Shown here in pieces: positions 22,169 to 41,802 of a stretch of DNA of 64,000 nucleotides. A model generated the notes under the pieces. It made no database searches. It was not told where the DNA came from and saw only the letters and a program-made list of their open reading frames with translations. The stretch is taken from contig CBDCWI010000001.1 of NCBI GenBank assembly GCA_965223325.1, positions 1,984,001 through 2,048,000 on the forward strand, in the 5' to 3' direction. The position numbers were made by a program, and so were the translations under genes. The stretch is from Candidatus Multivoradales bacterium. Its GTDB lineage: Bacteria; Acidobacteriota; Thermoanaerobaculia; Multivoradales; Multivoraceae. Numbering within the stretch: position 1 is the stretch's first letter; each line of letters begins with the position of its first letter.

Positions 22169-22498
22169 ATGAAAGTCGACTGGTACTACCACCGCAACGG
22201 TTGAACAGGTTGCGAGAGAGCGGCCAAGTTCATGGCTGCACGCAACATTGAGATCACTGAGCAGGTTCCGGCGAGCAGAAAACTGGGCGAGAAAGAAGCG
22301 CGCGAACTCATCAAAGGCGCTCGAGCGATCCTGGTCTCGAAAGGCCGCAAGCAGGAGAGCTGGAAAGGCGGGCGTGCCACGAGAGACGTCGTTGCCGCCT
22401 TCCTCGGTTCAACCGGCAACCTGCGCGCTCCAACCGTGAAGTCTGGCAGCACGGTCCTCGTTGGCTGGAACGAAGACGTCTGGAAAAAAGTCTTCTAG
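22169..22498 (+). CDS. ArsC-family (seleno)protein, 109 aa, Sec at residue 12 (UxxC)
   Basis: GGAG SD then ATG 22169. Reads MKVDWYYHRNG-TGA(22202-22204)-TGCERAAKF, in frame with the ORF-track 22232..22498 ORF, which contains LGSTGNLRAPT...VLVGWN. SECIS-like hairpin downstream of the TGA. Confidence 0.85.
22209..22246 (+). promoter_or_regulatory. Putative bacterial SECIS element
   Basis: GTTGCG/CGCAAC lower stem, GCGGCCA/TGGCTGC upper stem, loop AGTTCA. 22 nt separate the UGA from the loop, and G is at loop position 2. Confidence 0.7.
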
Positions 22499-36197: not shown

Positions 36198-38078
36198 ATG
36201 CTGAAACTGCGAACTCACCGCTCATGCAGAAGCCTCACCTCGACTGATTTCCGTCTCTCCCTGGCGCTTGCGATTCTCTTCCTGGTCGCTGCCGCCTCGC
36301 ACGCCTCCGCCGCAGCCGACGCCGGCTCTCTGCTCGACGGCTTCGACGAGCAGGTCGAAGGGTGGATGAAGGAGTGGAAAGTCCCCGGGCTCGGAGTCGC
36401 GATCGTCAAAGACGGTGAAGTCGTTCTCGCCCGCGGCTACGGCTACCGCAATCTCGAAGATCGGGTCCCAGCAGACGAAAACACCCTCTTCGCAATCGGC
36501 TCGAACAGCAAATCGTTCACCGTCACCTTGCTTGGCGCTCTCGCCGAGGAGGGCAAAGTCGACTGGGATACCCCCATCCAGCAGTACCTGCCCGACTTTC
36601 GCATGCACGACCCTTTTGCAACCGCCGAGATGACGGCACGTGATCTGGTCACCCACCGCTCCGGGCTGCCCCGGCACGACCTCACCTGGTACGCCACCGG
36701 GCGTTCGCGGGACGAGCTCTTCGAGCTCCTCGAACACCTCGAACCAACCAAGCCCTTCCGCTCCACCTACCAGTATCAAAACCTGATGTTCATGACCGCC
36801 GGGTACTTGGCCGAACGGCTCACCAACCGCAGCTGGGAAGAGCTCGTCAACGAGAAACTCTTCGACCCAATCGGCATGGAACGCTCGAACTTTTCGGTCG
36901 ACGCCATGCAGAAGGACGCAAACTTCTCCTACGCCTACAGCCACCGACCCGAGCAGGAGATCGAGCGCATCCCGTTCCGCAACATCGACGCGATCGGCCC
37001 CGCCGGCTCGATCAACTCCTCGGCCGCTGAGATGGCCAAGTACATCCAGTTCCATCTCGACTACGGCCGCGTGGGTGACAAGCAGGTGATTTCAGAGAAC
37101 ACCGCCCGCCAGATGCAAAGCCCACAAATGCCGATCACCGGCCCGCAACTCGCCGCCCTGTTCAGCGGCGCCGACGAGGGCGTCTTCGGCGACCCGTCGT
37201 ATGGCATGGGGTTGATGGTCAGCAGCTACCGCGGTCACAAGCACGTCAGCCACGGCGGCGGAATCGACGGTTTCATCTCGGCGATGAACTGGCTGCCGCA
37301 CGACGACATTGGCATCGTCGTGCTTTCGAACACCAACGGCAGCGGTGTGGTGCCAACGCTGGTCGTGAGGAACGCCTTCGATCGCCTACTCGGCCTCGAG
37401 CCCATCGACTTCGCCGCCACGCAGCGAGAGCGCGAAGCCAAGGCGAAGACCGACTCCGACGAGAAGAAGGCGAAAGACGACGCAGATCGCAAAAAGGACA
37501 CCAGGCCGTCGCACGCCCTCTTTGACTACAGCGGCACCTACGCACACCCTGCCTACGGCGCCGCGACAGTCACTTCCCGCGACGATCAACTGCAAATCGC
37601 AGTCGTCGGGTTCGAGGTACCCCTCGAGCACTACCACTACGACGTGTTCGAGGTGCCCGAGGGGCTAGAAGGCGACGCCGCGTCACTCGAAGGGACCAAG
37701 GTCCAGTTCCTCTACGACAAGCGCGGCACCGTCGACCGCGTCACCGTGCCACTCGAGCCGAACCTTCCCGACATGATCTTCGAACGCCAACCGAACGAGG
37801 AGATGTCCGACCCCGACTTCCTGGCGAAGTTTGTGGGCACCTACGAGCTGGAAGGGCAAACCGGCGAGATCGCGTTGCGCACCGACAACACTCTGACTCT
37901 TTCCTTGCCGGGCCAGCCCACCTGGACGCTCTCACCCGAGCAAGGCACCAGCTTCACCATCGACACGCTACCGGGTTTCCACGTCGAGTTCGGCCTCGAA
38001 GAGGGCGCGGAGCACGCCGAGACGGTGACCTTCATCCAGCCCAACGGAACGTTCGTCGCCACCCGCAAGCAACCATAG
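36198..38078 (+). CDS. Serine hydrolase (beta-lactamase/PBP-like, S12) with C-terminal DUF3471-like domains
   Basis: Signal peptide, IGSNSKSF (SxxK), YQN, HGGGIDGF, YSGTYAHPAYG. Confidence 0.92.
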   Translation: MLKLRTHRSCRSLTSTDFRLSLALAILFLVAAASHASAAADAGSLLDGFDEQVEGWMKEWKVPGLGVAIVKDGEVVLARGYGYRNLEDRVPADENTLFAIGSNSKSFTVTLLGALAEEGKVDWDTPIQQYLPDFRMHDPFATAEMTARDLVTHRSGLPRHDLTWYATGRSRDELFELLEHLEPTKPFRSTYQYQNLMFMTAGYLAERLTNRSWEELVNEKLFDPIGMERSNFSVDAMQKDANFSYAYSHRPEQEIERIPFRNIDAIGPAGSINSSAAEMAKYIQFHLDYGRVGDKQVISENTARQMQSPQMPITGPQLAALFSGADEGVFGDPSYGMGLMVSSYRGHKHVSHGGGIDGFISAMNWLPHDDIGIVVLSNTNGSGVVPTLVVRNAFDRLLGLEPIDFAATQREREAKAKTDSDEKKAKDDADRKKDTRPSHALFDYSGTYAHPAYGAATVTSRDDQLQIAVVGFEVPLEHYHYDVFEVPEGLEGDAASLEGTKVQFLYDKRGTVDRVTVPLEPNLPDMIFERQPNEEMSDPDFLAKFVGTYELEGQTGEIALRTDNTLTLSLPGQPTWTLSPEQGTSFTIDTLPGFHVEFGLEEGAEHAETVTFIQPNGTFVATRKQP

Positions 38079-38089
38079 AGGCCAGCGAC

Positions 38090-38431
38090 TCAGGTCAGCT
38101 CGAGGAGGTCTTCGACCGGTCTCCCGAGGACGGCCCGGTCGTCGAGAACGGCGATCGGCCGTTGCAGGAGAGTCGGGTGCTGAGCCATGGCGGCGATGAT
38201 CTCGCTTTCCGGCTCGTCGCCGGTCAGCCCGAGGCCGCGATTGGCCGCATCGCGCTTTCGAAGAACCGCCGCAGCAGGGCTGCCGAGCTTGCCGAGGACC
38301 GATTCGATCTCGGCCTCGGAGAGCGGCTCATCGCGGTACTCGCGGTACCGGTAGCTGGCGCCCGCGTCGTCGAGCAAGGCGACCGCCTTGCGACAGGTGC
38401 TTCAAGTGCGGGTACAGATGAGCTCGATCAT
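38090..38431 (-). CDS. ArsC/Spx/MgsR-family selenoprotein, 113 aa, Sec at residue 10
   Basis: GGAGG SD. ATG 38431 overlaps the kinase TGA. Reads MIELICTRT-TGA(38404-38402)-STCRKAVALLDDAG...HPTLLQRPI..GRP. SECIS-like hairpin follows the TGA. Confidence 0.88.
38369..38394 (-). promoter_or_regulatory. Putative bacterial SECIS element
   Basis: GTC-GCAAGGC-[GGTC]-GCCTTGC-TC-GAC. 17 nt separate the UGA from the loop, and the loop starts with G. Confidence 0.72.
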
Positions 38432-40320
38432 TCGTAGTCCTCCATCTCAGGATCGATGTCGCACTTTTTCTTTTCAGCCTCGGGATCCATGAACGCCAGG
38501 ACCCAGATGGTCGGGTACTTGGGATGGGTGATCATGACCTCGTAGCGACCTGGCTCGGGCCGGTATTCATCCCCGCCGCCTGACCCATCCCAGTCGTCGG
38601 CCTCACCGAGCAGGGTTCCGTTGACGGTGATCAGCGCTTCCTCGGGATCGACATGAAACTCCATATAGCTGCGGCAGGCGTACTCTTCGACGAACTCGAC
38701 GTCGGGCGGGGCAACGATGCGATCGGTGGTTGGCGTGGCGTCCGACGGGGTCGTCGCCGGCGCCGGTGGAATCAGCGCTGGAGTCGCGAGTCGCGCAGCG
38801 CGATCGCTTGACTCCTCGGCCGACTCTTCGGTTGCTGGAGCCAGCGAGCTCACTGGACCGGGTGATGCGGCTGTCGCACTTCGGAGGACCGGAGGCTGAG
38901 GCTTCGAAGCGGTGGGCTCGGCGCGCTGGGCGGGCGGTGATGCGGCGACGATCGACGGTTGCCTCTCAGGCTCGCGGTCATGGTCTCGCGACTGCACCGC
39001 GGTCTCACTCGGAACATCAGCCGACCTCGGCGCCACGGGTTCTGGCTCGACATCGTCAAGCGCCGCGGTCACCCGAACCGGTTCTTCAGGAGTGTTGGCG
39101 GCGTCGTCTGCGACCGGTTCCACATTCGTCGCCTCGAGGGCCGACTCGTCAGGCGTTGCGACCGGCGTATCACCGGGCCCGCCCATCGCCGCGACCAGTC
39201 CAACGCCCAGGCTCGCCAGCAGGCCAACGATCGAAAGCAGACCGGCACCGCGCCGGGCCCAGACACCGCGCACGGACTCTGGACTGCGCTTCGAGAGCCA
39301 GCCTCGCAGGTTCTCGTCAAAGCGAACGAACGTACTGGTGAGAGCAGCCACCGTGGTGACTCGAGGCCCTGTGGCTGATGACGTTTCGCCGCCAGCGCGG
39401 GTCGTGCCAGACGTCACCATCGTCTTCAGCGAACCCTCGCTCGGCCGATTGGTCGAGCTTCGGGAGGCGAAGCGAATGTCTGCACCCAGCCCGGCATCGT
39501 ACGCAGCCTCGATGAGCGCCGTCTCGAAGGCAGCGCTGTCCTCGAAGCGATCTTCGGGATCTTTCGCGAGAGCTCGCAGGACAACACCCTCGAGCTCGGC
39601 TGGAACCGAAGACTCGAGATCGGAAAGCGGCCGCGGCTCCTCGTTGACGTGCTTGAACGCGACCGACATCGCATCGTGACCGTCGAAGACCGGCTCTCCG
39701 GTCAAGCACTCGTAGAGCAGGACCCCCAAGGAGTAGAAGTCGGACTGCGGCGAGACCCGGGCCTCCTGCAACTGCTCCGGCGCCATGGCGTAGGGAGTTC
39801 CGAGCACCATTCCGGTTTGGGTCTGGAAAGTGGCACCACTGACCTGGGCGACTCCGAAGTCCATCAACTTCACCGTGCCAGCCCGGTTGATCATCACGTT
39901 CGCCGGCTTGACGTCACGATGAATGACTCCGTGCTGATGCGCCATCCCGAGCGCCCGCGCCACCGAGATCCCAATATCGATCGCATGCGCAACGGCGAGC
40001 GGACCGTGCGCCAGGACATCTCGCACCGACGGGCCGTCGATGTACTCCATGATGAGAAAGAGCGTTCCGTCGGCTTCTTCGATGTCGTAGACGTGAACGA
40101 TGTTCTCGTGCGTGAGCCGAGCGATCGCCAGTGCCTCCTGGCGGAAGCGCTGCATCATCTCGCTACCCTCTGCCAGATGAGTGGGCAGCATCTTGATCGC
40201 CACCGAGCGTTCGAGCGACTCCTGGGTTCCGCGATAGACGACACCCATACCGCCTTTGCCTACCGCTTCATCGATGCGGTAGCGACCAATCGTCGTCCCG
40301 ATGCGTGGGTCCGTCGCCAT
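38428..40320 (-). CDS. Hanks-type Ser/Thr protein kinase with TM helix, Pro/Ala/Ser linker and PEGA-like C-terminal domain
   Basis: GKGGMGVVY, VAIK, HRDVKPAN, DFG, APE; one TM segment; VDPEEALITVNG..LG. Confidence 0.93.
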   Translation of the reverse strand: MATDPRIGTTIGRYRIDEAVGKGGMGVVYRGTQESLERSVAIKMLPTHLAEGSEMMQRFRQEALAIARLTHENIVHVYDIEEADGTLFLIMEYIDGPSVRDVLAHGPLAVAHAIDIGISVARALGMAHQHGVIHRDVKPANVMINRAGTVKLMDFGVAQVSGATFQTQTGMVLGTPYAMAPEQLQEARVSPQSDFYSLGVLLYECLTGEPVFDGHDAMSVAFKHVNEEPRPLSDLESSVPAELEGVVLRALAKDPEDRFEDSAAFETALIEAAYDAGLGADIRFASRSSTNRPSEGSLKTMVTSGTTRAGGETSSATGPRVTTVAALTSTFVRFDENLRGWLSKRSPESVRGVWARRGAGLLSIVGLLASLGVGLVAAMGGPGDTPVATPDESALEATNVEPVADDAANTPEEPVRVTAALDDVEPEPVAPRSADVPSETAVQSRDHDREPERQPSIVAASPPAQRAEPTASKPQPPVLRSATAASPGPVSSLAPATEESAEESSDRAARLATPALIPPAPATTPSDATPTTDRIVAPPDVEFVEEYACRSYMEFHVDPEEALITVNGTLLGEADDWDGSGGGDEYRPEPGRYEVMITHPKYPTIWVLAFMDPEAEKKKCDIDPEMEDYE

Positions 40321-40497: not shown

Positions 40498-41802
40498 CTA
40501 CTCTTCGATCGCCGCGTAGACCAGGGCGCGAACCTTGCCGTGATCATCGATGTCGCCAGCCGGAATGATCTGCGTCAAGTAGACGACCACCAGCTCCTCT
40601 CGCGGGTCGACCCAGTACGAAGAGTGATAGGCACCTCCCCAGGCGAATTCACCCACGGAACCGGGAGTCCCCCGTGCCCCCAGGTCGGTCAGGACCGAGA
40701 AGCCGAGGCCGAAGCCGGTTCCGGCTCCCCAGACGAACTTGTCGCCAATGTGGTTGGTGGTCATCAGCCGGACGGTCGAAGGTGCCAGGAGGCGATGCCC
40801 GTCGAGCGTTCCGCCGTTGGCCATCGCCTGCAGGAACCGCGCGTAGTCCGAAGCGGTCGATAGGAGACCCGCGCCGCCGGAAAAGCTCTTGCGCGGGCCG
40901 ACGACATAGTGACCCTGACTGAGCATCGTGCCTTCGTCAGGCGAGCGACCGATCTTTCCCTCGTCGGCGTAGTAGACCGTCGCCAGGCGATCGCGCTTCG
41001 CCTCCGGCACGTAGAAGAAGGTGTCGGTCATGCCGAGGGGCTCGAAGATTCGCTCGCGCAGAAAGTCGTCGAGTGGCATGCCCGATGCCACTTCGACCAC
41101 CGCACCCAGAACGTCGGTCGAGTAGCCATAGACGAACTTCTCACCGGGGTGAGACTCGAGGGGCAGCTCGGCCATTCGATTCACCGTTTCGACAACGCCT
41201 TCGTCGCGGTGAGCGAAGTACCAGCCCTGCATCTCGGCAGCGCCCCAACGGTCGGCGGCAACGCCACCACCGTAGCTCAGACCCGAAGTGTGAGTGAGCA
41301 GGTCACGGAGAGTGATCGCCCGCTTCGCTGGCACCAGGTCATAGCCGCCACCGGCACGCCCAACGGCGACCTGCATGTCGGCGAACGCCGGCAGGTATTT
41401 GTGCAGCGGATCACCGATGAGCACCTCGCCGTCTTCCTGGAGAATCAGAATCGCAGTACTCACCAGGGCCTTGCTCTGCGAGGCAATGCGAAAGATATCG
41501 CCGCGCTCCATGGGGTCGTCCGCCTCCACATCCCGATGACCAAAGGCGTGGTGTAAGACCACCTCCCCTCGCCGCGCGACCAGAACCACACCGCCGGCGA
41601 GCCGCCCCTCCTCGGCGTAGCCATCGAGAGCCTCCGCCAGCCGAGCCAGTCGTTCTGAAGACATGCCCACCGCCTCGGCCTTCGCACGCGGCAACTCCTT
41701 GGCAAGGAGGGGCGATTGCAAGGAAAAGGAAAACGCTGCCAGAACCACGGCCCCAGCGACGTAGTGGAGAAACCGACCAGCAGAAAGACGAGACGCGTTC
41801 AT
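40498..41802 (-). CDS. Serine hydrolase (beta-lactamase-like family VIII esterase/peptidase), secreted
   Basis: [42 protein letters not shown]...WVDP. Confidence 0.92.

Follow-up and report, generated by a model that had tools for sequence, protein, structure and literature searches.

A probable stand-alone ArsC-family selenoprotein with a C-x3-U-x2-C motif in Candidatus Multivoradales bacterium

Bacterial selenoproteins of the ArsC family have been described in several forms. An 'Arsenate reductase' with a UxxS motif, where U stands for selenocysteine (Sec), has been in print as a selenoprotein since 2005 (PMC1088965) and 'ArsC-like' selenoprotein entries have been tabulated (PMC1794560). 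The 'Arsenate reductase 2' (cd03032) in the GOS (Global Ocean Sampling) set is a UxxC form (PMC2398784), and reviews list both TIGR00014 with UxxS (pfam03960) and NF041106 with UxxC, an 'Arsenate reductase-like protein' (PMC9312934, PMC13188914), all according to the passages of these sources that deal with the family. The gene described here lies on the minus strand of a 64,000-nucleotide (nt) stretch of the genome of Candidatus Multivoradales bacterium, referred to as the window. It is likely to encode a stand-alone ArsC-family selenoprotein of 113 residues that carries Sec at position 10 (U10) and works as a selenol-based reductase. Like the published forms, it would have Sec at the N-terminal redox position, and like them it is predicted from a UGA codon, a bacterial selenocysteine insertion sequence (SECIS) and Cys-containing homologues (relevant passages of PMC1088965, PMC2398784, PMC9312934 and PMC13188914). 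It differs from them by its motif, C-x3-U-x2-C and not UxxS, and by the lack of any match to NF041106 at E <= 10. Selenoproteins of this kind are already known, and the window protein is possibly a distinct clade among them. In the passages of the literature that were searched, no description of a C-x3-U-x2-C form of ArsC turned up, which is no claim that the form is unpublished.

A few other systems serve as landmarks. In the glutaredoxin-coupled arsenate reductase ArsC of E. coli plasmid R773 (TIGR00014; PDB 1i9d), we take C12 to be the catalytic Cys, with R60, R94 and R107 as the Arg triad; that work was done on these positions agrees with PDB entries whose titles name C12S and R60A/K mutants. 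Two short 'arsenate reductases' of solved structure, 3rdw from Yersinia pestis and 3f0i from Vibrio cholerae, are closer to the window protein in sequence; to our knowledge, their function has not been established. Spx belongs to the same superfamily, and its CxxC motif is a redox switch. Finally, the pI258-type ArsC, a protein of the low-molecular-weight-phosphatase type, is thioredoxin-coupled and uses a three-cysteine relay; its fold and family are unrelated to those of the window protein.

The mechanical list of open reading frames (ORFs) presents the gene as a 95 amino-acid frame (38090..38377, minus strand) starting at a TTG at position 38377, without any catalytic Cys. Read from an ATG at 38431 with the in-frame TGA taken as U, the same frame gives 113 residues and an N-terminus MIELICTRT-U-STCRKA. 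A preliminary description of this DNA, made from the sequence alone, had proposed this longer frame, with a GGAGG 7 nt upstream of the ATG and an ATGA overlap between the start codon and the stop codon of a kinase gene; both the annotated start and these elements are found again, base for base (Table 1). Homologous loci were collected from two sources: a search in six frames through the own genome and those of 40 relatives (41 genomes), and a scan of species-representative genomes that yielded 147 relatives, the best 80 of which were taken and 76 parsed by motif pattern (L048, L050, L079 and L101 were dropped, the pattern not having found them). The ATG at 38431 is the true start and the called ORF a truncated gene: the L-I/V/L-C-x-x-T segment 5' of the TGA is kept in all 76 parsed loci; the matching start position is an ATG, GTG or TTG in 66 of the 70 loci with a TGA; conservation at the protein level runs upstream of the UGA to the start codon, as in bacterial selenoprotein genes; a 95 amino-acid product from TTG 38377 would be devoid of strand 1 and of the whole active-site motif. 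Given the ATGA overlap, it is probable that in this genome ribosomes finishing the kinase gene go on to translate the selenoprotein.

The Sec column was followed across both samples. Close homologues (E <= 1e-29) occur in the genomes of six other relatives, each with a single TGA at the same codon, and two weaker matches (35-36% identity) have no stop. Among the parsed loci, the equivalent of codon 10 is TGA in 70 and TGC in six. The homologues found in protein databases fall into two sets: full-length proteins of ~110-125 amino acids with Cys at this column, and proteins of 93-99 amino acids that start at the point equivalent to TTG 38377, just past the hairpin described below, as is expected for Sec genes truncated by gene callers. 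The in-frame UGA stands at a position held by Cys in homologues, namely in the full-length proteins and in the six TGC loci. The combination of the TGA with the conserved residues 5' of this codon and with the hairpin is found in 70 independent loci belonging to several phyla; the C-x3-U-x2-C loci are labelled Acidobacteriota, Gemmatimonadota, Myxococcota and Calditrichota, and the Sec form is present in most sampled members. As far as sequences can tell, the call of a selenoprotein at 38431-38090 is very likely to be right.

Two side observations concern this column. A public family protein of 169 amino acids, P0057, is extended at its N-terminus by a long unrelated segment and shows a Trp in the Sec column; the Trp probably results from a gene call under a TGA=Trp code (code 4). 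In one metagenome-assembled genome, two copies of the Sec-form gene (L065 and L071) lie ~6.6 kb apart on one contig, both with the TGA and the full hairpin.

In bacteria, the apical loop of the SECIS lies 16-37 nt from the UGA, according to the passage of PMC10778597 that treats it, and a G in this loop is given as a conserved feature in the legend of Figure 3 of PMC1088965. In the window, the arms GCAAGGC (38391-38385) and GCCUUGC (38380-38374) form a perfect 7-bp stem closed by a GGUC loop (38384-38381), as had been noticed in the preliminary description. The spacer from the UGA to the stem is 10 nt long, and the loop, which contains a G, starts 17 nt past the UGA, inside the range of 16-37 nt. 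All seven stem pairs are formed in 70/70 TGA loci, with the loop GGTC in 69 of them and AGTT in one. In an alignment of the window sequence with these 70 loci, which amounts to 67 distinct rows, 469 of 469 stem cells are paired. Changes on both sides of the stem are seen in two of the seven pairs and in six cells, from A-U to G-C in four rows and from G-C to A-U in two. At the codon level, a Lys AAG to Arg AGG change is accompanied by Leu TTG to CTG, and a Lys AAG to AAA change by Ala GCC to GCT. None of 500 shuffles matched the observed share of paired cells, the both-side cells or the covariation score, while 12 of the 500 matched the observed count of pairs; shifting the partner by 1-3 columns makes the stem pairing fall to 29-57%.

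Codon usage within the hairpin is also informative. Leu19, the codon of which forms part of the 3' arm, is TTG in 66 of the 70 Sec loci, as compared to 9% of the 996 other Leu codons of the same genes, and Arg14 is CGC in all 70 TGA loci against a background of 44%. The spacer codons vary: Cys13 is TGT in 43 loci and TGC in 27, and the codon before Cys13 behaves likewise. Synonymous sites are frozen in the stem, and the spacer codons are free to vary. In the Cys-form loci, the stem is broken (4-6 of 7 pairs) in five out of six, and the loops vary. The comparative evidence for this hairpin as a predicted SECIS is strong, unlike its single-sequence thermodynamics. To note, the Cys-form locus L067 (TGC) retains a perfect 7-bp stem and a GGTC loop, and may represent a recent Sec-to-Cys switch.

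The genome to which the window belongs (6.69 Mb in 2 contigs, 98.2% complete) contains all four components of the Sec pathway that were looked for. The tRNA-Sec scores 71.9 bits with the Rfam model RF01852 and is called tRNA-SeC, anticodon tca, by ARAGORN; selA (449 bits), selB (297 bits, or 327 with a C-terminal piece) and selD (223 bits) all score above their curated NCBIfam cut-offs, as does the tRNA-Sec above that of Rfam. Furthermore, selB is detected in 39 of the 41 genomes of the relatives sample. The predicted machinery of this organism for decoding UGA as Sec is complete. The proposal that an ArsC-family gene with Sec and a bacterial SECIS is hidden here is borne out by the Sec machinery, the Sec/Cys pair and the conserved, covarying hairpin.

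The 113-residue protein is a member of PF03960 with a predicted ArsC-type thioredoxin-like fold. Its Pfam ArsC score is 51.1 bits against a cut-off of 24, with an additional weak glutaredoxin match, and it is the only PF03960 gene found in its genome. None of the NCBIfam models reaches its curated cut-off: the best one is arsC TIGR00014 (80.5 bits for a cut-off of 106.05), followed by the Spx/MgsR subfamily TIGR01617 (44.3 bits for 75) and by the Spx equivalogs (28.8-38 bits for 123-159), while NF041106 (ArsC_rel_Se_1, cut-off 85 bits) does not match it even at E <= 10. The best solved relatives by sequence are 3f0i (E of 5e-11) and 3rdw (E of 3e-10), then R773 ArsC. The first two share with the window protein the Arg positions and the length (119-121 amino acids), and differ from it by a C-S-K-S (CxxS) motif with Cys and by an identity of only ~29-30%. 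The alignment to 1i9d places U10, R58, R91 and R104 on residues 12, 60, 94 and 107. Compared with R773 ArsC, the window protein has Sec for Cys, Cys for Ser at +3 and an extra Cys at -4. This last residue, C6, which had been pointed out at the outset, is kept in 76/76 parsed loci; among 46 full-length sequences, R58, R91, R104 and C13 are invariant, the Cys/Sec column and C6 nearly so. The AlphaFold model based on the alignment of these 46 sequences reaches a predicted local distance difference test score (pLDDT) of 95.7, with U10 immediately ahead of helix 11-22 and C6 closing strand 2-6. Foldseek comparisons return TM values of 0.92 with 3rdw, 3f0i and 1i9d, 0.84 with YffB and 0.78-0.83 with Spx structures.

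A mechanism may be proposed along these lines. Translation would start at ATG 38431, coupled to the end of the kinase gene; at the UGA of codon 10, the hairpin 38391-38374 would recruit SelB carrying Sec-tRNA(Sec), and Sec would be inserted. At the start of helix 1, U10 would occupy the catalytic-Cys position of the glutaredoxin-coupled ArsC, the oxyanion pocket of which would be retained via R58, R91 and R104. The U10 selenolate may then attack a bound oxyanion or a disulfide-type substrate; C13, one helical turn off, might resolve the adduct as a selenenylsulfide; the conserved C6 could act as a further relay residue; thioredoxin or glutaredoxin would recycle the enzyme. This scheme recalls, as a way of working, that of pI258-type ArsC: three conserved redox residues could permit an intramolecular relay ending in a thioredoxin-reducible bond. 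The phosphatase-type ArsC family as such has a single match in the own genome, in a 311 amino-acid frame located elsewhere (108 bits for a cut-off of 174). The gene may be read as that of a housekeeping or stress redox enzyme, with arsenate as one candidate substrate, possible and yet doubtful.

Several points weigh against the reading as a Sec-dependent reductase. Folded alone, a 66-nt stretch gives a z of 0.20 and a minimum-energy fold different from the hairpin, and a 45-nt stretch does form the hairpin with a z of -0.89, which is not significant against shuffles; in Rfam, the segment 38300-38460 gave nothing at E <= 10 beyond a 9-bit match to a snoRNA, due to chance. Since single-sequence folding gave no significant stability, the argument relies on the comparison between loci: the expected hairpin is upheld by its conservation and covariation, and not by the fold of the single sequence or by an Rfam match. 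Within this comparison, four of the seven stem pairs are constant, so that the covariation amounts to the six cells in two pairs, and the result of the 500 shuffles is to be read knowing that related sequences may outdo shuffles even where no structure exists. The 80 loci kept are the ones that resemble the query most, and the 70:6 ratio of TGA to TGC is not a population estimate. Likewise, the insertion of Sec at U10 is predicted from comparative evidence, and the parts given to C13 as resolving residue and to C6 as relay residue are conjectural.

Among the alternatives, a classical arsenate reductase of arsenic resistance survives best, and is nevertheless unlikely. The protein would then be a glutathione/glutaredoxin-coupled enzyme with Sec for Cys12, working ahead of arsenite export. 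The TIGR00014 model as best curated match, the presence and conservation of the equivalents of C12, R60, R94 and R107 and the TM of 0.92 to 1i9d all favour it, as do the Sec-containing arsenate reductases already published (PMC1088965, PMC2398784, in their passages on this family). The score of 80.5 bits, below the equivalog cut-off of 106, speaks against it, and so does the motif, in which UxxC and a further conserved Cys take the place of the UxxS/CxxS of glutathione-dependent enzymes. The genomic context points in the same direction. No arsenite pump, ACR3 or ArsB, was found in the 98.2%-complete own genome, and there is no ACR3 match in four of the seven genomes with the gene. ACR3 exceeds its cut-off in seven of the 41 genomes, in 3/7 with the Sec gene against 4/34 without it, a comparison taken as uninformative given the small numbers, the relatedness of the genomes and the lack of linkage; in the three genomes with both, ACR3 is always on another contig than the Sec gene. 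When all frames of at least 100 amino acids within 4 kb were clustered over 77 loci, the large clusters consisted of the gene itself (77 loci) and of overlapping opposite-strand frames (61 and 10 loci). No other cluster was common to more than five of the 77 loci, and none was a conserved ars neighbour. Because no neighbour is conserved and no ACR3 or ArsB was found, the gene is placed outside any ars operon, as had been supposed from the window alone; judged by its surroundings, it is a stand-alone gene without a conserved partner.

The kinase gene directly upstream had suggested another function: a dedicated kinase/selenium-redox signalling module, in which the kinase would phosphorylate the selenoprotein or be controlled by it, or in which the selenoprotein would relay a redox signal sensed by a two-Cys outer domain of the kinase. 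This is very unlikely. Besides a single hydrophobic stretch, the kinase has a region rich in Pro and Ala and a C-terminal part of ~90 amino acids; two Cys are indeed visible in the translation past the hydrophobic stretch, while the 'PEGA-like' domain of the preliminary description is not recovered, Pfam being silent on the last 95 residues even at E <= 10. The ATGA overlap on the same strand makes co-transcription and co-translation probable here, and the lack of ars genes nearby would agree with a role in signalling. Nevertheless, only three of the 76 parsed loci have a Hanks-type kinase within 4 kb, and never directly upstream on the same strand, even though the upstream sequence extends to 2 kb or more in 66 of the 76: the kinase lies 2 kb upstream on the opposite strand in L107, 3 kb downstream in L045 and directly downstream in L109, a Cys form. 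Of six loci from close relatives, one (L026) has a kinase, downstream past another frame, and in another (L022) the sequence does not extend upstream of the gene. The convergent gene that lies downstream in the window is also present in L038 and L040, which do not share the kinase.

In five relatives, including one of the same genus, none of the matches listed at E <= 1e-20 reaches residues 540-630 of the kinase, and no orthologue of the C-terminal part is seen; the best matches cover the catalytic domain only, with 41-45% identity. A homologue of the selenoprotein is absent from the same-genus genome at E <= 1e-8. These organisms are also very rich in kinases, with 30 to 119 matches to this kinase at E <= 1e-20 in each of the five relatives and 49 Pkinase matches in the own genome. 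Because the adjacency is not conserved and kinases abound in the genome, the pair looks like a local arrangement with a lineage-specific neighbour in a kinase-rich genome. The overlap of 4 nt suggests something about co-expression in this genome, and not about function. The link to the kinase would have been the surprising part of the preliminary description, and it is not supported.

It is most improbable that the protein is an Spx/MgsR-like regulator binding the RNA polymerase, in which a UxxC switch would replace CxxC. The U-x-x-C-R-K-A segment stands at the position of the Spx switch, with the same dithiol-type x-x spacing and R-K-A next to it where helix 1 begins; weak matches exist to TIGR01617 and to the Spx models, and Spx structures are found with TM values up to 0.83. 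All these models stay far below their cut-offs (75 to 159 bits), and both fold and sequence are nearer to the ArsC-type enzymes. The protein is also shorter: with 113 amino acids, its alignments end around residue 104 of Spx chains of 131-132 residues. Finally, its third Arg (R104, in G-R-P) is invariant, as in ArsC enzymes.

The idea that the TGA is a genuine stop codon, or stems from a sequencing error or from the decay of a pseudogene, the real product being the 95 amino-acid protein called from TTG 38377 by the ORF list and by public annotations, has a negligible probability and is refuted in practice by the comparative data, given the recurrence of the TGA, of the residues before it and of the hairpin in the 70 loci, and the loss of strand 1 and of the active-site motif that such a product would entail.

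Table 1. Coordinates of the selenoprotein gene, its elements and the upstream kinase gene in the window
Feature	Position	Strand	Remarks
Full selenoprotein gene	38090..38431	minus	113 codons plus stop TGA 38092-38090; ArsC family (PF03960), motif C6-x3-U10-x2-C13
Start codon ATG	38429..38431	minus	overlaps the kinase stop TGA 38430-38428 as ATGA
Shine-Dalgarno-like GGAGG	38439..38443	minus	7 nt 5' of the ATG; read in the sequence, presumed function
In-frame UGA, codon 10, presumably read as Sec (U10)	38402..38404	minus	
TTG codon of Leu19, 3' arm of the hairpin	38375..38377	minus	taken as start by ORF callers
Predicted SECIS hairpin inside the coding sequence	38374..38391	minus	7-bp stem and GGUC loop
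Hanks-type Ser/Thr kinase, 630 amino acids	38428..40320	minus	kinase domain residues 14-260, Pfam Pkinase 175 bits

The surroundings of this gene present several other features. Two large frames lie on either side of the kinase/selenoprotein pair, 36198-38078 (plus strand) and 40498-41802 (minus strand), the translations of which presumably belong to the serine-hydrolase/beta-lactamase type, having an S-x-x-K-type look; the former, downstream of the Sec gene, is the frame that converges on this gene in L038 and L040 as well. Between 41716 and 42470, a near-exact direct repeat of ~80 residues in overlapping frames, situated between the hydrolase gene and the next one, points to intergenic DNA that is repeated in tandem. 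Outside the window, at G000:C2:2394564-2395366 (minus strand), a Pkinase match is split into two adjacent pieces, one with an in-frame TGA; the gene may be broken, or the TGA may be recoded here too.

Another hidden gene, for a second putative selenoprotein, is located ~16 kb away from the first, on the plus strand (22169-22498; 109 amino acids from ATG 22169), with an in-frame TGA at codon 12 (22202-22204) in a U-T-G-C motif. The ORF list holds only an 88 amino-acid frame from 22232. Its product scores 99.1 bits with NF041106 'ArsC family (seleno)protein' for a cut-off of 85, is the sole NF041106 match of its genome, and has no BLASTP likeness to the 38431-38090 protein.

Part of the value of the gene at 38431-38090 lies in annotation. 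The TTG that is mistaken for a start is itself fixed by the SECIS stem, and the recoding signal would in this way mislead ORF callers. Annotation reduces the gene, as well as 70 or more relatives from species-representative genomes, to fragments of 93-99 amino acids without the active site, one example being a public record named 'arsenate reductase (glutaredoxin)'. A dedicated model for the C-x3-U-x2-C clade would correct these truncated annotations.

It may be speculated further, with little confidence, that the C-x3-U-x2-C proteins form a distinct ArsC-family clade, covered by no curated NCBIfam model and not involved in arsenic resistance, of reductases working by a thioredoxin-recycled Cys-Sec-Cys relay on another oxyanion or disulfide, and placed in one lineage under the translational control of a receptor kinase. 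In more general terms, the occurrence of an ArsC-like enzyme that bears Sec and its own resolving Cys in genomes where no arsenite pump is found suggests a role of this type of protein outside arsenic resistance.

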